A stretch of 35,191 nucleotides of DNA from Candidatus Iainarchaeum sp. (GTDB lineage: Archaea; Iainarchaeota; Iainarchaeia; JAFGOX01): positions 1 through 35,191 of the forward strand of contig JAFGOX010000041.1 of NCBI GenBank assembly GCA_016926295.1. Reading direction: 5' to 3'. The translations under genes were made by a program, and so were the position numbers. The notes under the pieces were generated by a model. That model had not been told where the DNA came from. It saw only the letters and a program-made list of their open reading frames with translations, and searched no databases. Shown one piece after another: positions 307-22,888 of this stretch (position 1 is its first letter; each line of letters starts with the position of its first letter).

Positions 307-353
307 AATAATTAGAATTCAGCACGTATTAAACTTCAGAATTAGTGTTAAAA

Positions 354-467
354 GGTAGCAGCACGCTGGGCTTCCCGTGTGGAGCACAGTACCAACCAAC
401 GCACAGAAGGCTTAATTTCCAGGTTCGGAATGTTTCTGGATGTGGCCCCCCTGTTATGGCAGCTACC
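354..467 (-). rRNA. rrf: 5S rRNA
   Basis: Minus strand reads GGUAGCUGCCAUAAC...AUUCCGAACCUGGAAAUUAAGCC...GGUACUG...GGGAA...GCUGCUACC. It has the terminal helix GGUAGC/GCUACC, loop C CCGAAC, UUAAGC and loop E GUA/GGAA motifs. Confidence 0.93.
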
Positions 468-2745: not shown

Positions 2746-3507
2746 ATGGACTTATTATCTGAGCTTTACAAACTGATGATTAAATATCATTTCAAACAGG
2801 GAAAAAGCGAAAAAAGATTTATCCTGATTAATTCTGAAATTCTGAAATCAGTTGCAAAGGACCTGAATGCAAAGAAAGATGAAACTGTTTTTGTCAGATA
2901 TGCAAATGCCGGATTCGCAATAAGAGAGTTAAAATCCAAAATAATTGTTGCAGATGCAGAGCCGTATATAAAAGTTCTCAAGGGCGAACTTAAAAATATA
3001 AAAATTGTAAACCTGTCAGAGAAAGTAAAGGCAGAAAAGCTTCTTGTTTTCCCGCCAATAAACAAAGCAAAGGAAGAAACTGAAATGGCCGCAGTGAGCA
3101 AGGCAACAGCAATACTTCTTTTACCATTAGAGCTTGACCTTGCAATATCCGCATATCCGGGAGAGTATGATTACAGTGCAACCAGCGTGATAATCCAAAT
3201 CCTGTCTGAAATAAAGGAAAAGAAAATTGTTTTGCCCGCGGAATTCTATCCAAGAGCAGAAAGCAAGATGTACCTGATAAAACTAAAACCGAAAAAAAGC
3301 AGCATAAAGGACGCAGATCATTTCAAGAAATTCATTTCCGGACTGTTCAAGTACAAAAACAGGACAATACAGAAGGCGCTAAAACTCGCAAACAAAGAAA
3401 ACAATTGGAAGCTCTCTGATGAAAAAATAGAAAGTGTAAGCTTAGATGAAAAGGTTTTCCTGATAACTCCGAAAGAATTTGAAAAAATATACTGCGAACT
3501 TTTCTAA
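2746..3507 (+). CDS. ksgA: degenerate KsgA/Dim1 (RsmA) homologue, predicted methyltransferase-dead
   Basis: C-terminal half matches KsgA (A.PG..DYS..SV..Q, FYP, F..F...LF.YKN.T...AL, ...LITPKEF) and it occupies the ksgA syntenic slot. GQNF, ExGxG and NLPY motifs are absent. Confidence 0.8.
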   Translation: MDLLSELYKLMIKYHFKQGKSEKRFILINSEILKSVAKDLNAKKDETVFVRYANAGFAIRELKSKIIVADAEPYIKVLKGELKNIKIVNLSEKVKAEKLLVFPPINKAKEETEMAAVSKATAILLLPLELDLAISAYPGEYDYSATSVIIQILSEIKEKKIVLPAEFYPRAESKMYLIKLKPKKSSIKDADHFKKFISGLFKYKNRTIQKALKLANKENNWKLSDEKIESVSLDEKVFLITPKEFEKIYCELF

Positions 3508-5063
3508 ACCTTCATCGGCGTGATTTCAAAGTCCCTGCCGGTGTATTCCTCGATTATCATCTTTTCTATTTCTACCGGATTGTTTGCCTTTGCAAAATTC
3601 TGCGCGTCAAAAAGCTTTGCCTCATTCTCGGCAAATATCTCAAAAAGAATCTGGCCCTTCTTGACCCGCGAACCGTTCATAACATACAACTGAATTCCCG
3701 CCCCTTTTGTTATCGGCGAGCCTGCAATTCGCGCAATTTTGTTCACAGTTCTGTTGTTGATTATCGCCACAGTTCCGTTCTTTTCTGAGCGGAATTCATA
3801 TCTTTGCTTTCCGACAGGTATGTCTTCTGACTTTATATCAGGATTACCGCCCTGCGCCTTGATTATTCTCCTGAACTGAGTCAATGCCTTCTTGTTCTCG
3901 ATTGTCTTTTTCGCAATCTCATATCCTTCGCCCTTGCTGCAATGCCCGGCCATCTCCAGAAGTTTTCCGGCAAGCAGACAGGACTTGTCTGCCAAATCCT
4001 CAAATCTCTTTCCTTCAAGAATTTCCAGAACGTATTTTGACTCAAGCGCCGGCCCTGCCACTCTCCCGACAGGCTGGTCGCCGTCAGTTATCAAAACATT
4101 TACAATTATCCCGACTTTGGCGCCGACTTCCACAAATTTCCTCGCAAGCTCTTTCGCCTCATCCATATTCTTGACTTTGACATGCGGCCCCATAGGAATA
4201 TCTATGACTGCATAAGTCGCTCCAACCGCCAGTTTCTTTGCAAGAACAGATGAAACAAGCTGGCCCTGGGGGTCAAGGGAAAGCGGATGCTCTACTTTTA
4301 TGATCTTGTCATCAGCTGGCGCAAGATTTACTGAGCCGCCCCATATAAGCGCGCCACCGGTTTCGTCAACTATTCTTTTTATCTCGGCAATATTATGCTC
4401 AACCGGCATCAAAACCTCCAACGTGTCTGCAGTGCCGGCTGCTGACGTTATCGCCCTGCTACTAGTCTTTGGCATTATGTAACCCAAAGAAGTCACAATA
4501 GAAACAACAAGGGGAGATGTTCTGTTTCCGGCCACTCCGCCGATCGAATGCTTGTCTAAAATCTTCCTGTGCCCTAATCCAAGACTCTCCCCGCTTTCGA
4601 CCATGTGCTTTACCATTGACACAATCTCATCATCTGTGAAACCGTGATTGTAAACCCCTGCAACAAAATAGGTTATCTCGACCTCGCTCAGATTATTAGT
4701 GCTGATATCATAAATTATCTGCCCTATCTCTTCATCGCTTAGTGTCTCTCCGACCAGTTTCCTTTTTATCGCATCAATGGATTTCGGCTGTTCGGCAACA
4801 GTAATAAAAAGTTTGTCCCCTGTCTTCGAATTAAGCCTTTTCCCAACACTTCCAAATAAGCCTATCTGCTTGGGCTTGACAATTGTCTCTGTTGTGTTGA
4901 CTATTGCGGTCATCACTTTCTGGTTGGATGGATTTTTTATGCGCACACGCGACAAAGTAGGAGCATCAAGCTTTTTTGATGTAATTTCATTAAGGAGAAT
5001 TATTGGCTTGTCCGCATCCATGTCAAGTACCTTTGCTAACAAAGGCAGCTCATAGGTGTTCAT
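3504..5063 (-). CDS. AMP phosphorylase
   Basis: N-terminal extension domain, DKHSIGGVAGN, PKTSSRAITSAAGTAD, WGG.V.LAPADD, AQGG. Confidence 0.95.
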   Translation of the reverse strand: MNTYELPLLAKVLDMDADKPIILLNEITSKKLDAPTLSRVRIKNPSNQKVMTAIVNTTETIVKPKQIGLFGSVGKRLNSKTGDKLFITVAEQPKSIDAIKRKLVGETLSDEEIGQIIYDISTNNLSEVEITYFVAGVYNHGFTDDEIVSMVKHMVESGESLGLGHRKILDKHSIGGVAGNRTSPLVVSIVTSLGYIMPKTSSRAITSAAGTADTLEVLMPVEHNIAEIKRIVDETGGALIWGGSVNLAPADDKIIKVEHPLSLDPQGQLVSSVLAKKLAVGATYAVIDIPMGPHVKVKNMDEAKELARKFVEVGAKVGIIVNVLITDGDQPVGRVAGPALESKYVLEILEGKRFEDLADKSCLLAGKLLEMAGHCSKGEGYEIAKKTIENKKALTQFRRIIKAQGGNPDIKSEDIPVGKQRYEFRSEKNGTVAIINNRTVNKIARIAGSPITKGAGIQLYVMNGSRVKKGQILFEIFAENEAKLFDAQNFAKANNPVEIEKMIIEEYTGRDFEITPMKV

Positions 5064-5957
5064 TCAATCACCTCTGTGAATTAGTGAGACAAAAGTTGAC
5101 GGCAAAACAAAGCCTTTCTCGCAAATAATTGCATTCACATACTTTGATTCGGTCTTGTCAAATGCCGGATTCTTTACTTTGATTTTTTTATTTTTGAATG
5201 TTGCAACTTCTTTTGTCGACCTATGCTCTATTGTTGTGTGTTCCTTGATAAGAGTCTCGGGGTCAAATTTGTAAGTGCTTGCTGCAACATAATAAGGAAT
5301 ATCATATTTGTCAGCCAGAACAGCATAAATCGCAGTGCCAACTTTGTTGATAACATCTCCGTCAGAGGTTATCGCATCAGCGCCTGTAAGATAAACATCA
5401 ACATCACGCATAAGTTCCATCACTGCAGTGTCAACAATATAGGTCACATCAATTCCCGCTTTTGAAAGTTCCTCTGCGGCCAGTTTCCCCTGCAATAACG
5501 GTCTGCTTTCAGTGACGATAACATGCGGGTTTTTCTTCATTTTCTGCAAAGTTTTTATTAATTCCATAACAGTCGAAGAGTGGCAATGCGTTAAGATTGT
5601 TGAATCCTTTGGAATGTGATGCGCCCCTATAACCGCAATCTCCTCATTGACTTTCTTCAGCTCGTCAAAGTACCTGTTGCAGGCGTGCTTCAAACTTACT
5701 TTCGGATTGTCTGCGTATCTTATGTTTCGGTAAACAAAGGCAATTGATTTCCTGAGAGCAGGCTCAGTAGGCCTTTGGGCAATAAGATAATCAGCATTCT
5801 GCTTGAATTCCTTGAAAAACTGAGTTTTGGTTTTGTACTCATAATTAGAAAGAGATTTCAGTGCTTTTAATGAGCTTTTGGCTACATTGGTGGCCCCCTG
5901 AACTTTTAATGCTTTGATATCCCTACCAATAGACACAATTTCCTTTCTAAGCACCAT
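5064..5957 (-). CDS. ribose-1,5-bisphosphate isomerase (eIF-2B alpha/beta/delta family)
   Basis: VQGA, RPTEP, LTHCHS, ESRP..QG, GADAI, NKVGT, NPAFD. Abuts AMP phosphorylase. Start set to the ATG at 5957. Confidence 0.9.
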   Translation of the reverse strand: MVLRKEIVSIGRDIKALKVQGATNVAKSSLKALKSLSNYEYKTKTQFFKEFKQNADYLIAQRPTEPALRKSIAFVYRNIRYADNPKVSLKHACNRYFDELKKVNEEIAVIGAHHIPKDSTILTHCHSSTVMELIKTLQKMKKNPHVIVTESRPLLQGKLAAEELSKAGIDVTYIVDTAVMELMRDVDVYLTGADAITSDGDVINKVGTAIYAVLADKYDIPYYVAASTYKFDPETLIKEHTTIEHRSTKEVATFKNKKIKVKNPAFDKTESKYVNAIICEKGFVLPSTFVSLIHRGD

Positions 5958-6050
5958 ATAACCGCAAAGGAAAGAAGACACAAGGGTTTATATACTTTTT
6001 TAAGCTAGTTTCTATAAAAAGGCCAGCGAGTTATTGGGGTGGATTCAACT

Positions 6051-16099: not shown

Positions 16100-19000
16100 T
16101 TATTCTTCTATTTTAATCGTTTCATCTGTAATCGGCTTCTGAACATCCTTGCCTGAAAGCTTTAATCCGACTACAGAAGAGCCATCTGCACCCCTGGCCA
16201 CACCAATTACCTGGTCCACAGCCCTGATTACTATGTCATTGTGGCTGATAATCACAAACTGTGAAATGTTTGCATAGTTTTTCAGCAGACCGCCAAGTTT
16301 GTTTGCATTAACTGCATCTAAAGCCGCATCGGCCTCATCCAAAATATAAAACGGCGCAGGTTTGTGCTGCTGTATTGCAAACAGGAAAGCCAAGGAAGTG
16401 AGTGTTTTCTCACCGCCACTCAACGCGTCTATATTCCTGAGCATTGCCCTGCCTTTTGGAGCCGCCTCAATAAGCAGACCTGAATTGAACAGGTCTTCCT
16501 CATTGTCAATCTTAAGCGTTCCTTTGCCTTCAGTAAGCTGCGGATAAACAGTCTCAAAGTTCACTCTGATTGAATCGAATGTTTCTCTAAAGGCTTTTTC
16601 CCTCTTAGAATCAATCTTTGATATCATATCGAGAACTACTTCTCTCTCGCGTCTCAAAATGTCAATCTTTTCCTCAATCTCATTAATCTTCTGAAGATAC
16701 TCATCGTAAAGAGTAAGGGCGCGCATATTGACTGCGCCAAGAGCTTCGATTTTTGCTTCAAGCTCCGGAAGCTGCCTCATTAGGTCACTAACCGAATCCT
16801 TGAGCGGCTCAACGCCAACATATTGCTTGAATTCCTCTTTCAAATCTGCCAGCTTTGTCTCGACTTTTGCCATGTTGATTCTGGCCTCATTAACAGACGA
16901 TTCTATTCCGCTTATTCGGCCAAGATGCTTGCCTTTTGACATTCCCAGCTCTTCAAGCTTCTTGTCAACCGCATCTTTTCTTTCCAATAAAGTTTCAAGG
17001 CTCTTTGAAGTCTTCCTTAATTCAATCTCTTTCTTTTCAAGCTCTTTTGAAAGGATTGTGATACTGTTATTCGAAACCTTTATTTCATTGTCAAATGAAT
17101 CTGTTTCTTTTGAAATATTTTCAATCTGCGCAACAGTTTCTTTCTTTCTGATTTCAAGACCCTGCTCAATTTCAGTCTTAAGTCTCTGAACACCTACAGT
17201 CTGGGTTGACATCGACTCTTTCAATGCATCTATCTGCTTGCTCAAGTCGTCTATCTCCAGTCTGCTTTTGCTTGCACGAGATTTTGCAACCAGGGTTTCT
17301 ATCTCTTTCTTCTCAGTTTCCAGTTGGCTTATCTTTGTCAATAGTTTCTCTGATTCTTTCTTCTTAAGCTTAACATGTGATTCAATATCCTTAACAGAAA
17401 CAAGCAATCCCTTCTGCGTATCCCCTAGTTGCTCAGAAAGTATGTTTCTTTCTTTCTCAACTTCCTTGATTTTTCCCTCAATCTCTGCGCGCTTTTCCCT
17501 TAGCTCGTTTGACTCTATTCTCACGCGCTCGATATCGCTTAAGGCATTGCGCTTCATTGCCTCGACATCCATAACCTGCTGTTCAAGCTCCTTGACCCTT
17601 TTAACATCCTTAATCGTAAGCGTCTTCTTGTTCCTTGAACCACCAAGCATTACTCCGGAGGATTCTGATATATCGCCATCTTCGGTAACCATTCTTATTT
17701 TTCCGACGCCAACCTTTCTCGCACTCTCAATTTTGTCAATAACAAGTGTGTCTCCAAAAATATACTCAAATGCAGGCCTGAAAGATTCTCTGAAATCAAC
17801 CAGATTTATGGCAAAGTCAATTGCACCGGCATTCTTTGCAAGCGGTTTCACTTCTGCAGTAATGGCCCGCCCTCTGATTTTATTGAGCGGGATAAAGGCA
17901 ACCCTTCCAAGATTCTTCTTCTTTAGATAATTAATACAATCTGTTGCGGTCTTATCGTCATCCACCACAACATAAAACATCTTCGAGCCGATTGCAGTCT
18001 CGATTGCAACAGCATTATTATCAGAGTACTTGCACAAATCAGCGACAGTGCCGTATATTCCTGAAATTTCACTTTTCTTTTTTGCCTCAATAAGGGCGTC
18101 AACTCCGGGTGGCTGCATAAGTCCTGCTGATTTCAAGGTTGAAAGCGTTGTTTTAAGCGAAACATAATCCTCTCTTATTGCCTTAAGCTCGTTCTCAACT
18201 GTTTCAAATTTCTTGTTTACTCTTTTCTCTTCCTCAAAATATGATGATATGCTTCTGTTAACGGAGTCAAGTTCGTTCTTGTAGGATGCAAGCTCTTCTT
18301 CAATTGCATCATATCTTGACTGGGCTTTTTTGATTGCCTCTTCTGCGCCCTGAGACTGCTCCTTCTTTATTTCAATTTCCCTTGTGTATGCGTCAATCGC
18401 GGCTTTTAATAAATAGAACTGCTCTTTCAGTCCGTCAATCTCTATTGACTTCTTCCTGAGCTGTGACTCGTGTTCGTAAGCGGACTCGTCCTCTTGCTTG
18501 TATTTCTCAAGTAATTCAGTCTGCTTGTCTCGGAGGTCCTTTAATTTCTTAAGTTCTGGGGCATTCTTCTCTTCCAGTGCTTTCAGCTCATTCTCCTTCT
18601 GGGTAATTTCAGATTCAATATTTGACTGCCTTTCGCGCAACTCCTGAATCGCCTGTGTATTTTTGCTAATCTGCTCTTTTCTTGACTTTGTCTTTTCCTT
18701 GTTAAGCTCAATATCGGTTCTTAATTTTTCCATGTCCTGCGCAAGCTTTGTCTGACCTGCCCCACCAGATTCAAGGATTTCCTTGTTCAGGTCCTTGAGT
18801 TTTTTGTCCCATGTCGATATCTCCGCATCAAGTTCCTCAATCTTTTCCTTTGCCTCTTTTATTTTTGTATCGCTGCTCTCAAGCAGTTTCCTGTTGTGCT
18901 CAAAGTCTTTTTCATATCTCTGTATTTCAGAGCCAAGGACTGTTGATTTTATTCTTTTTACCTTTGTATTGAGTTCCTGGAATCTTTCAGCATCCTCTTT

Positions 19001-21445
19001 GTCCTTCTTCAATGCGTCAAGCATCTCCTGCCTTTCGCCCTTAATAATATGCCATTCCTTGATCTTGTCTTCGACCTTGTCCAGTTGTCTCAGGGACTCC
19101 ACTTTCTTCTCTTCGTACTCTGCAATCCCTGCAACCTCGTCAATCACGGTTCTTCTCATTCTAGGGGTCATTTCAATAACCCTTTCAATATCTCCCTGCA
19201 AAACAACGTTATGGCCGGAAGTACTGATATTAAGACTCATAAGCAACGCATGGATTGCGCTCCTTGTGGTCCTTTTCCCGTCAATTCTATAAACCGATTT
19301 GCCCTGTTTGTCAATTGTTCTCGTGACAACATAATCCTTTTCCCCGTCCTTTAGGACAACACTAACGCGGGCCTTGCCATCAACTGACTTGTGAAAAACT
19401 AGGTCACTTAATCTGTCTGCACGAATTGTCTTAAGACTGGAAATTCCAAAAACAAACATCAGAGCGTCAATTACATTGGAATTATGAACAATACAATTTT
19501 CTGCAACAAAATTATGATAAGGAATTACGGTTAAATCATAAACATATTTGTCTTTTGGGACAATCCTTCTTATATCTACTATTTCTTCCCAATAAACCTC
19601 TGAATTGGCCAATCTGCGTAACAACGTTATTTTTTCTCTTACTAGGACACTATTACTTTTCATAAGTTGTGAGAATGCTAATTTAATTTTAGATAAGGTT
19701 TGTCTGTTTGGTACTCTGGCGCCACGTATAAAATCACTAATATTATTCGCAACACCTGCATATTGTGCAAATCCTTTTTGACTTATTCTAAACGTGTGTA
19801 AAAATAAATCCAACCCCAAAAAAAGCTCATTTTCATTAACTTTTTCTATTTCATTTAATTTACTCTCAAAAATATCTGCAACCTCAATTAATCCTGCCCT
19901 ACTTGGTGCACAAGATCCTTCTAAATAAGCCTTAAGCTTTGGATGCCCAAAACCACTGAGTTCTTTTGAATTAACTCTTAATATAGAAAACAAATCACGA
20001 ATAATTGGCTGAACACCCGGTATAACATCAAAATTTGGATTTGTTTTTTTATTTTGGAAAGATTCTAAAACCTGCGTCAAAGTTTCTTTCTTTTTACCAA
20101 CAAGATAAATGTTTTCATTAAACAAACCTAAATTTCCCTTACCATAAATAGATAATCTATAATGGGTTCTACGAACTTTGTTCTTAGTATTAGCTGCACA
20201 TTTCTCAGTCTTACTAATTGTTGAAGAAATTCCTAACCTAAGCAGAAGCGTTTGCATAGCATATATTATATCTTTGCTGGCTGAAGTAAGTTCAAGATGA
20301 TTTTTAGAAACGTGGCCGTCACCAGAAAAATAACTTCCAATTAAGTGGCCTATTTCCTCATTTGTTAACTCAAACACAAAAGGACTAAATTTCTTAGTTG
20401 CTGCATGTGCACCTTGTTTTAAACCAAAAAGGTTTTCAAGATAAACGCCTGCAGCATGAGAAAAAATCATTGAATCATAGCAATTTGGCTTATACTTCTT
20501 TGTATATGCCATAGCCCCAAACAGTTTCTTTGATAGTTTTTCAAAATCTGCTATTATTTTCTTATCTTCATTAATAATTCTAATTTGATTTGAATTCTGG
20601 AACCCGCCTTCTGCGAATAAGTAACCCGCATACCTTGCCAAATCTGCACTAATTTTTGGAACTGCTACTGTTTTGTTTTGTGATTTTGATTTAATTTCTG
20701 TAACAAAGCTAACTATTTCATTTTCTCTACCAATTGCACATAATATTTTTACAAGCCAATAAATATTAACTGCTTGTTTATCCCTTATTCCTTTAATTAC
20801 ATTTTTTGGGATTCCAACTTTAACTGACACATTTACAACTGAACCATAAGCCTTCATTAAATCTGAAATTAAAGAATATACCTTATCTGAATAAGGAACA
20901 TAAATATTATCTTCAAGCCCAAATAAATTAAGTAATAAATTATCACGCCTAAGATTAACTTCTAATTTTCGCGGAGTTGCGACTTTAGAACCAACACTAA
21001 GTTCTTCTGCCTTAGCTGAAGTTATCTTTCCATCTTTTAGAATAATTAAGGGGTGATAAGGTGTTGTTGTAATTTCTTTTCCCGAGCGTAACTTTATATT
21101 TAATAAATTTTCAGGTGCAGTACGTTTTATGAATGCCGTAACTGGAACTTGCTCAATTTTTGCAGTATTTGGATTTAATGAAAGAATTTCTATGCCTTCG
21201 GGGTTACCCAAAGTAAAAATCCCATCATCCATATTTTCTGTTTCTGCGGTCTTAAGGAGTGCAGTATCTACAATATCTTTAATAGTTCTAACCTTTCCAT
21301 TCGCTAATTGAATCTTAGAATCTCCAACTAAACACTTGCCGGAGCCGTTTGCCCCCACAACCGCGGTCAACCCATTAGCAACGGGTATGTCTGCCTTCTT
21401 GAAAGACTTGAAATTTCTAAGTTTAAGCGCATGTATCTTAACCAT
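16100..21445 (-). CDS. smc: chromosome segregation protein SMC, intein-containing precursor (1781 aa; 1163 aa after splicing)
   Basis: NFKSF, Walker A GANGSGK|S, Q-loop LQG, coiled coils, hinge (GRV.FIPL, G...GG), LSGGEK, LDEADAALD, SH switch. Confidence 0.97.
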   Translation of the reverse strand: MVKIHALKLRNFKSFKKADIPVANGLTAVVGANGSGKCLVGDSKIQLANGKVRTIKDIVDTALLKTAETENMDDGIFTLGNPEGIEILSLNPNTAKIEQVPVTAFIKRTAPENLLNIKLRSGKEITTTPYHPLIILKDGKITSAKAEELSVGSKVATPRKLEVNLRRDNLLLNLFGLEDNIYVPYSDKVYSLISDLMKAYGSVVNVSVKVGIPKNVIKGIRDKQAVNIYWLVKILCAIGRENEIVSFVTEIKSKSQNKTVAVPKISADLARYAGYLFAEGGFQNSNQIRIINEDKKIIADFEKLSKKLFGAMAYTKKYKPNCYDSMIFSHAAGVYLENLFGLKQGAHAATKKFSPFVFELTNEEIGHLIGSYFSGDGHVSKNHLELTSASKDIIYAMQTLLLRLGISSTISKTEKCAANTKNKVRRTHYRLSIYGKGNLGLFNENIYLVGKKKETLTQVLESFQNKKTNPNFDVIPGVQPIIRDLFSILRVNSKELSGFGHPKLKAYLEGSCAPSRAGLIEVADIFESKLNEIEKVNENELFLGLDLFLHTFRISQKGFAQYAGVANNISDFIRGARVPNRQTLSKIKLAFSQLMKSNSVLVREKITLLRRLANSEVYWEEIVDIRRIVPKDKYVYDLTVIPYHNFVAENCIVHNSNVIDALMFVFGISSLKTIRADRLSDLVFHKSVDGKARVSVVLKDGEKDYVVTRTIDKQGKSVYRIDGKRTTRSAIHALLMSLNISTSGHNVVLQGDIERVIEMTPRMRRTVIDEVAGIAEYEEKKVESLRQLDKVEDKIKEWHIIKGERQEMLDALKKDKEDAERFQELNTKVKRIKSTVLGSEIQRYEKDFEHNRKLLESSDTKIKEAKEKIEELDAEISTWDKKLKDLNKEILESGGAGQTKLAQDMEKLRTDIELNKEKTKSRKEQISKNTQAIQELRERQSNIESEITQKENELKALEEKNAPELKKLKDLRDKQTELLEKYKQEDESAYEHESQLRKKSIEIDGLKEQFYLLKAAIDAYTREIEIKKEQSQGAEEAIKKAQSRYDAIEEELASYKNELDSVNRSISSYFEEEKRVNKKFETVENELKAIREDYVSLKTTLSTLKSAGLMQPPGVDALIEAKKKSEISGIYGTVADLCKYSDNNAVAIETAIGSKMFYVVVDDDKTATDCINYLKKKNLGRVAFIPLNKIRGRAITAEVKPLAKNAGAIDFAINLVDFRESFRPAFEYIFGDTLVIDKIESARKVGVGKIRMVTEDGDISESSGVMLGGSRNKKTLTIKDVKRVKELEQQVMDVEAMKRNALSDIERVRIESNELREKRAEIEGKIKEVEKERNILSEQLGDTQKGLLVSVKDIESHVKLKKKESEKLLTKISQLETEKKEIETLVAKSRASKSRLEIDDLSKQIDALKESMSTQTVGVQRLKTEIEQGLEIRKKETVAQIENISKETDSFDNEIKVSNNSITILSKELEKKEIELRKTSKSLETLLERKDAVDKKLEELGMSKGKHLGRISGIESSVNEARINMAKVETKLADLKEEFKQYVGVEPLKDSVSDLMRQLPELEAKIEALGAVNMRALTLYDEYLQKINEIEEKIDILRREREVVLDMISKIDSKREKAFRETFDSIRVNFETVYPQLTEGKGTLKIDNEEDLFNSGLLIEAAPKGRAMLRNIDALSGGEKTLTSLAFLFAIQQHKPAPFYILDEADAALDAVNANKLGGLLKNYANISQFVIISHNDIVIRAVDQVIGVARGADGSSVVGLKLSGKDVQKPITDETIKIEE
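19481..21334 (-). mobile_element. intein (618 aa) with LAGLIDADG homing endonuclease and HTH-like insertions
   Basis: Block A CLVGDS, block B TTTPYHP, block C YAGYLFAEG, block E LIGSYFSGDG, block F VYDLTV..HNF, block G IVHN followed by +1 Ser. Visibly more AT-rich than the flanking smc. Confidence 0.96.
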
Positions 21446-22815: not shown

Positions 22816-22888
22816 TGGGAAGGGTGGGAATTGAACCCACGGCCTCTCGGTCTTCAGCCGAGCGCTCTCCCGACTGAGCTACCTTCCC
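22816..22888 (-). tRNA. tRNA-Phe (GAA), no intron, CCA not encoded
   Basis: GGGAAGG/CCUUCCC acceptor, GCUC/GAGC D-stem, CUCGG-CUGAAGA-CCGAG anticodon arm, GUGGG-UUCAAUU-CCCAC T-arm, discriminator A. Confidence 0.97.

Follow-up and report, generated by a model that had tools for sequence, protein, structure and literature searches.

A LAGLIDADG-type intein at the Walker A motif of SMC in Candidatus Iainarchaeum

The smc gene of Candidatus Iainarchaeum sp. is interrupted by an insert of 618 codons that separates the lysine from the serine of the Walker A motif (P-loop) in the ATPase head of the encoded protein, and this insert is very probably an intein of the canonical class-1 kind, equipped with a LAGLIDADG homing endonuclease. 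The gene lies in a stretch of 35,191 nucleotides, here called the window (contig JAFGOX010000041.1 of assembly GCA_016926295.1, positions 1 to 35,191 of the forward strand). Inteins at the same bond are found in SMC proteins of many archaea and bacteria; the intein of the window is a new and divergent member of this known and common kind, with at most 40% identity to any other.

The insert, its junctions and the host protein

The smc precursor gene (16100..21445) is on the minus strand, as are all of its parts described below, and consists of a single open frame of 1781 residues including the intein, whose extent is supported by profile matches. The N-extein (21335..21445, residues 1-37) ends in the Walker A sequence GANGSGK at residues 31-37, and residue 38 is the cysteine with which the insert starts (CLVGDSKI...). 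The intein (19481..21334) runs from this Cys1 to a C-terminal His-Asn (IVHN at residues 652-655) and is recognized by Pfam, by NCBIfam and by structure prediction with AlphaFold2 followed by Foldseek. Directly after it the C-extein (16100..19480, residues 656-1781) begins with the Walker A Ser-Asn, the serine being the +1 residue; from residue 656 on the translation reads SNVIDALMFVFG (SNVID...). Neither a stop nor a frameshift is found in the 618-residue frame, and without the intein there remains an SMC of 1163 residues with a rebuilt GANGSGKSN loop.

The translation agrees with the profile alignments on where the insert sits, to a degree that chance would not produce. Residues 3-37 of the precursor map to positions 2-36 of the AAA_15 and AAA_23 profiles, and residues 656-1763 map to positions 37-1165 of TIGR02169 (SMC_prok_A). 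As positions 36 and 37 are thus consecutive across the insert, the insertion is residue-exact and parts the lysine of the Walker A motif from its serine. The precursor scores 758.5 bits against TIGR02169, for which the curated cut-off is 729.4. Moreover, Pfam matches SMC_N (1.3e-40) and SMC_hinge (3.7e-31, residues 1128-1245) in the extein, and the C-extein, which includes the hinge, shows LSGGEK as signature motif and FYILDEADAALD as Walker B motif in its translation. The host protein is thus a prokaryotic SMC composed of head, coiled coil and hinge. An earlier, sequence-only reading of the window had given the same boundaries, intein length and remainder, which were matched to the base on re-reading, and had placed the intein at this bond of the P-loop and expected excision to leave a normal SMC; both statements hold, since the profile resumes at the next position and its score lies above the cut-off.

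Within the insert, Pfam finds Intein_splicing (3.8e-30, precursor residues 45-655) and LAGLIDADG_3 (3.1e-17 on the precursor and 2e-18 in a scan of the intein, where it covers intein residues 331-409). The N-terminal splicing half of the Hint domain comprises intein residues 1 to about 125 (20960..21334), as delimited by TIGR01445 (intein_Nterm, 3.8e-15, precursor residues 38-134) and by the alignment of the solved intein 6rpq to intein residues 5-123. It contains block B, T91-x-x-H94, here T91-P-Y-H94 (21053..21064). The C-terminal splicing part (19481..19621), with blocks F and G and residues D600, H607, H617 and N618, is matched by TIGR01443 (intein_Cterm, 17.7 bits at a cut-off of 15.6) and by 6rpq at intein residues 577-618. 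Between the two, translation and alignment reveal LAGLIDADG motif 1, LARYAGYLFAEGG (20603..20641), with the acid E242 (YLFAEGG), and motif 2, IGHLIGSYFSGDGHV (20309..20353), with the acid D339 (FSGDGH), the latter motif also being covered by LAGLIDADG_3. On the basis of the LAGLIDADG motif, E242 and D339 are taken to be the catalytic acids. Both are present, as had been read from the letters of the sequence before, and their flanking glycines are intact.

The residues expected in splicing and cleavage are kept across the family. In an alignment with five relatives from the host's class, Cys1, T91-x-x-H94, E242-G243, G338-D339-G340, D600, H607 and H617-N618 are all retained. Among 79 aligned same-site SMC inteins, T91, H94, D339, D600, H607, H617 and N618 do not vary, position 242 always has an acid (E in 71, D in 8), and the first residue is a cysteine in 72 and a serine in 7. 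The inteins starting with serine form a clade of their own (P0026-P0036 and genome loci L100-L106; GPNGSGK|S...), often with a cysteine at position 2. The intein of the window also has a cysteine at residue 614 (19493..19495), in block G and four residues before the C-terminus, which none of the other aligned inteins shares, the residue there being I, V or M.

An AlphaFold2 model of the intein, built from a six-sequence alignment, has a mean predicted local distance difference test (pLDDT) of 80.2, with 84-94 in the splicing parts and high confidence in the endonuclease core. Its best Foldseek matches are TliVMA (7qss, 1.9e-23), PI-PkoII (2cw7, 2.1e-22) and PI-PfuI (1dq3, 3.3e-18), in which the same Hint domain is interrupted by a LAGLIDADG endonuclease; they differ in sequence (14-17% identity) and in their hosts, which are a V-ATPase, a DNA polymerase and a ribonucleotide reductase, respectively. 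When solved proteins were searched by sequence, the Pyrococcus CDC21-1 mini-inteins were found best (2.9e-26), and PI-PkoII and VMA inteins matched too. No solved splicing domain is closer in sequence than that of these CDC21-1 structures (6rpq and 6rpp), which align over about 125 columns with 34-37% identity. Their host, MCM, is likewise a DNA-handling ATPase, but it is another protein, and the solved forms are without endonuclease.

With 618 residues the intein is longer than its relatives (522-565 residues), the excess being a module of about 64 residues at intein residues 496-559 (19658..19849). The module columns are a gap in the five class relatives and are filled in only 7 of the 78 other aligned inteins, namely the serine-starting loci L100-L106; the module is also absent from TliVMA, PI-PkoII and PI-PfuI. 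In the first AlphaFold2 model it has a pLDDT below 50, whereas a second model of the C-terminal 219 residues, to which seven insert-bearing relatives were added, shows it as helices with a pLDDT of 60-91. A helix-turn-helix assignment was considered and rejected, as the Pfam HTH_3 match (E=0.049, 14.1 bits) stays below the cut-off of 23, and a Foldseek search of the PDB gave no fold match to the module at E <= 0.001.

Distribution, ancestry and base composition

The sequence-only reading had suggested, with reserve, that SMC is not commonly listed as a host for inteins, and rarity was not borne out. When precursor residues 1-720 were used to query a protein database (E <= 1e-10), 71 other clusters were returned, 32 of which combine an SMC-type P-loop with an intein ending in HN|SN. 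The E-values of 31 of these range from 1.4e-128 to 3e-64; the remaining one (P0042, 1.2e-49) is a mini-intein of 253 residues at the same site of a bacterial-type SMC, in which the endonuclease region is replaced by unrelated sequence. The existence of P0042 indicates that the element can decay in place. Outside the 32, most clusters are MCM or other ATPases, and two are SMCs that lack an intein. By best NCBIfam score, 18 of the 30 junction-bearing clusters scanned (two were left out because of their size) are archaeal-type and 12 bacterial-type SMCs, one of them in a near tie. Source names of the clusters include Nanoarchaeota, Ktedonobacterales, Acidobacteria and Omnitrophica.

A scan of species-representative genomes gave a similar result. 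It returned 510 stretches encoding relatives, and among the best 80 loci, whose junctions were checked, 78 have the same K|S junction; one of the two misses is a contig of 1.7 kb. According to the record titles, 40 of the 78 loci are archaeal and 38 bacterial. The archaeal ones are mainly from Woesearchaeota and further from Pacearchaeota, Iainarchaeota, Aenigmatarchaeota, Micrarchaeota and Nanohaloarchaea, while the bacterial ones include Acidobacteriota (12), Chloroflexota (11), Omnitrophota (5), Planctomycetota (4), Armatimonadota (2) and Saccharimonadota (1). Inteins at this site of SMC proteins are widespread and hence not rare. The shared insertion point, G-x-N-G-x-G-K|intein|S-N, is found for instance in a 1705-residue 'chromosome segregation protein SMC' from a Nanoarchaeota metagenome-assembled genome (P0004) and in proteins from Ktedonobacterales (P0006), Acidobacteria (P0014) and Omnitrophica (P0012). 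These inteins of uncultured DPANN archaea and bacteria have a homologous architecture of Hint domain and LAGLIDADG endonuclease with the same invariant residues; they differ from the intein of the window in sequence (31-40% identity), in length and, except for the serine-starting clade, in being without the extra module.

The host protein as such was known as well. Archaeal SMC ATPase is stated to contain inteins by Novikova et al. (2016, PMC4760082), so that SMC is not new as an intein host; in that paper SMC stands outside the top 15 archaeal intein hosts of Table 2, and the main text gives no SMC insertion site. A literature search over titles and abstracts for SMC inteins, for inteins of the Walker A motif or of chromosome segregation proteins and for DPANN inteins returned nothing on the insertion, and the sole intein mentioned in one preprint that it returned is a RadA intein. 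The host is therefore already known, and the SMC P-loop intein allele is widespread in public data.

In the host's own class the intein is sporadic. An SMC-family match is present in 199 of 215 genomes, and a search of these genomes with the intein gave five relatives at E <= 1e-77, the next match (5e-35) not being at an SMC P-loop. The junctions of all five were read, so that six of the 215 genomes, i.e., the host and five of the 214 others, have an SMC P-loop intein. The SMC-like proteins of the five relatives are of a shorter type, whose exteins measure about 975-1000 residues. Thirteen class genomes give an end-to-end match to the SMC model with open frames of 1114-1182 residues, lengths from which it follows that these 13 full-length SMCs, the nearest to that of the window by extein, are without intein; three of them (42%, 37% and 34% extein identity) were read and have uninterrupted GPNGSGK|SN sites. 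The patchy distribution fits a mobile element and does not distinguish gain from loss.

It was also observed that many SMC-type proteins of the class are only about 1000 residues long when the intein is not counted, and match the SMC model in two halves. P0002 has no SMC_hinge match and reaches 25.0 bits with the Rad50 zinc-hook model (cut-off 24.3), and CxxC motifs occur in the middle of P0003, P0027, P0031 and P0036. The short proteins appear to combine an SMC-like head with a hook-type coiled coil; the SMC of the window, unlike them, has a normal hinge.

Two trees were calculated, both as quick searches without bootstraps. In a tree of 37 inteins, from which the mini-intein P0042 was left out, the intein of the window stands alone on a long branch (0.89) as sister to two archaeal clades, with a support of 90 in the Shimodaira-Hasegawa-like approximate likelihood ratio test (SH-aLRT). 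In a tree of 79 inteins a single branch splits Archaea from Bacteria (SH-aLRT 98), which argues against frequent exchange between the domains; measured along the branches, the closest neighbours of the window's intein are one from Micrarchaeota and one from Omnitrophota, about equally far away. The highest identity to any intein is 40%. P0004 has 40% identity to the window in its intein and 30% in its extein, a small gap. A recent donor was looked for and none was found; with the nearest intein only 40% identical, no donor can be named.

The base composition of the intein differs from that of its host gene. Its GC content is 0.318 and its GC content at third codon positions (GC3) is 0.193, compared with 0.419 and 0.446 for the exteins, and the genome as a whole has a GC content of 0.401; of 1679 equally long segments of the genome, no more than 0.36% have a GC content as low. 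The intein DNA is thus AT-richer than smc, as had been noted from the sequence, but the recent acquisition that had been deduced from it does not follow. Among 73 SMC-intein loci with at least 600 bases of C-extein, GC3 of the intein is below that of the extein in 69, with a median difference of 0.124 and a difference of at least 0.2 in 13; the difference in the window (0.25) is at the high end and not exceptional. Furthermore, all the other inteins detected in the host genome are AT-shifted (GC 0.32-0.38 with flanks of 0.39-0.47). AT-richness is a trait of the family and as such no evidence of recent arrival, for which the 40% identity to the nearest intein does not speak either. The shift may come from weaker codon selection or from exchange among AT-rich hosts.

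Splicing, homing and competing explanations

The intact residues at both junctions and in blocks B, F and G indicate that the intein would splice. Translation would yield the 1781-residue precursor with a broken ATP-binding loop, from which the Hint domain would remove itself by an acyl shift at Cys1 and transfer of the N-extein to Ser+1, that is, to the Walker A serine itself, followed by cyclization of Asn618 and an O-to-N shift. The product would be the 1163-residue SMC with an intact GANGSGKSN loop, acting together with ScpA and ScpB. The freed endonuclease would cleave the conserved P-loop coding sequence of smc alleles that lack the intein, and repair would copy the element into them. 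It is presumably by such LAGLIDADG homing into the P-loop coding site that the element spreads, or once spread. That the endonuclease is still active today appears somewhat more probable than not.

The host assembly comprises 592 kb in 52 contigs and is 79% complete. One SMC match was found in it, and a different contig encodes both ScpA and ScpB. Since a single smc was found, the function of SMC-ScpAB would depend on splicing, unless the fifth of the genome that the assembly lacks contains a second copy; the earlier proposal that ATP binding by SMC relies on splicing is in line with this count.

Several points weigh against an intein on whose splicing SMC depends and that still homes. The long branch and the identity of at most 40% give no sign of recent homing, and retained acids are no proof of endonuclease activity. 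Given the 79% completeness, the genome may contain a second, intein-free copy of smc. Finally, no public read contig bridges 19480/19481 or 21334/21335, the matching sequence being restricted to short pieces within the intein. One public DNA run contains 94% of the sampled words of the window. No RNA run was listed as containing them, and two metatranscriptome runs of the study to which this DNA run belongs gave no matching sequence, a result without bearing on expression. From a run of a second study came three matching stretches within the intein, each about 200 bases long and with 5-6 differences, which is too little to speak about habitat or strain. The read check thus neither confirms nor refutes the junctions.

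Some of these points could be accommodated if splicing were intact while the endonuclease is dead or dying, the element being inherited vertically and kept because inexact excision at the P-loop would ruin SMC. The isolated position of the intein in the tree, a GC3 of 0.19 that could reflect relaxed selection under AT-biased mutation, and the decay of the family to the mini-intein P0042 at the same site all point in this direction. On the other hand, both LAGLIDADG acids and their flanking glycines are intact, the core is modelled with high confidence and the frame is open over its full length, so this explanation is judged unlikely, if the most serious of those considered. An assembly chimera, or a gene that is dead since its intein cannot splice, would also account for a junction that no public contig was found to cross, and the assembly is indeed fragmented; yet the reading frame is kept exactly across the insert, with consecutive profile positions on its two sides, 78 independent genome records show the same junction, no catalytic residue is missing, and the rest of SMC scores above its curated cut-off. 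This explanation can be all but dismissed.

Another idea is that the intein has been recruited to serve as a switch, so that conditional splicing (responding to temperature, redox state, DNA or nucleotide) gates ATP binding by SMC and with it the compaction of the chromosome. The insertion separates the catalytic lysine and serine, so that the precursor cannot bind ATP normally; the host genome has a single detected SMC gene; and the intein family has kept both its splicing residues and this one insertion site in Archaea as well as in Bacteria. The selective retention of P-loop inteins, moreover, is argued for as a possibility in the Discussion of Novikova et al. (2016, PMC4760082). The block-G cysteine, unique among the 79 inteins, could be counted in favour as well. 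No feature of the sequence demonstrates conditionality, however, and the support comes from the position of the insert alone. The endonuclease acids retained in 79 of 79 inteins and the sporadic occurrence in 6 of 215 genomes both fit a selfish homing element, and the 13 nearest relatives manage without an intein. A regulatory switch is accordingly considered improbable. The more specific version, in which conditional splicing gates the loading of SMC-ScpAB in a reduced archaeon with a single smc, and the extra module and Cys614 of this deep-branching Cys1 intein provide a trigger of its own or an extended DNA target, is slightly more improbable still. A homing intein, whose splicing restores SMC, is the explanation that we retain.

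Genomic surroundings and significance

The window carries archaeal housekeeping genes, including those for TBP, FtsZ, Spt5, the ribosomal proteins L11, L1 and L10, a tRNA-intron endonuclease and TrmB. On its minus strand are also a 5S rRNA gene (353..467) and a tRNA gene (22816..22888), as well as two adjoining genes (3504..5981) for a nucleoside/AMP phosphorylase-like protein with Glycos_transf_3 domains and an IF-2B family protein, a pair that we take to resemble the archaeal AMP salvage route.

Elsewhere in the host genome at least five further inteins were found, on four contigs, one of which holds two of the genes. Their carriers are PolB (with an HTH_5 match within the intein), MCM, a PPDK-type enzyme, a radical-SAM protein and a fragment at a contig end. 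In addition, contig C1 has a 16S rRNA match of 2240 bases (locus L112, 756-2995, minus strand) to a model of 1478 positions, and a LAGLIDADG open frame of 246 residues lies inside it (L112, 1467-2204). This insert resembles an rRNA intron that encodes a homing endonuclease.

The P-loop of DNA-handling ATPases is the commonest kind of intein site. Taken alone, the intein of the window is therefore of little significance, being one more homing intein of a P-loop. The AT shift at 69 of 73 loci implies that a dip in GC content at an intein is not to be taken as evidence of recent acquisition, and the clean split between archaeal and bacterial inteins at the same site is a useful by-product of the comparison.

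The inteins of DnaB, MCM and RFC treated by Novikova et al. (PMC4760082) likewise sit in the ATP-binding loop of P-loop ATPases that act on DNA, and SMC may be added to them with more weight than its mention there conveys. In uncultured DPANN archaea and in Acidobacteriota, Chloroflexota, Omnitrophota, Planctomycetota and Armatimonadota, SMC is a far more frequent intein host than the sentence devoted to it in that paper suggests.

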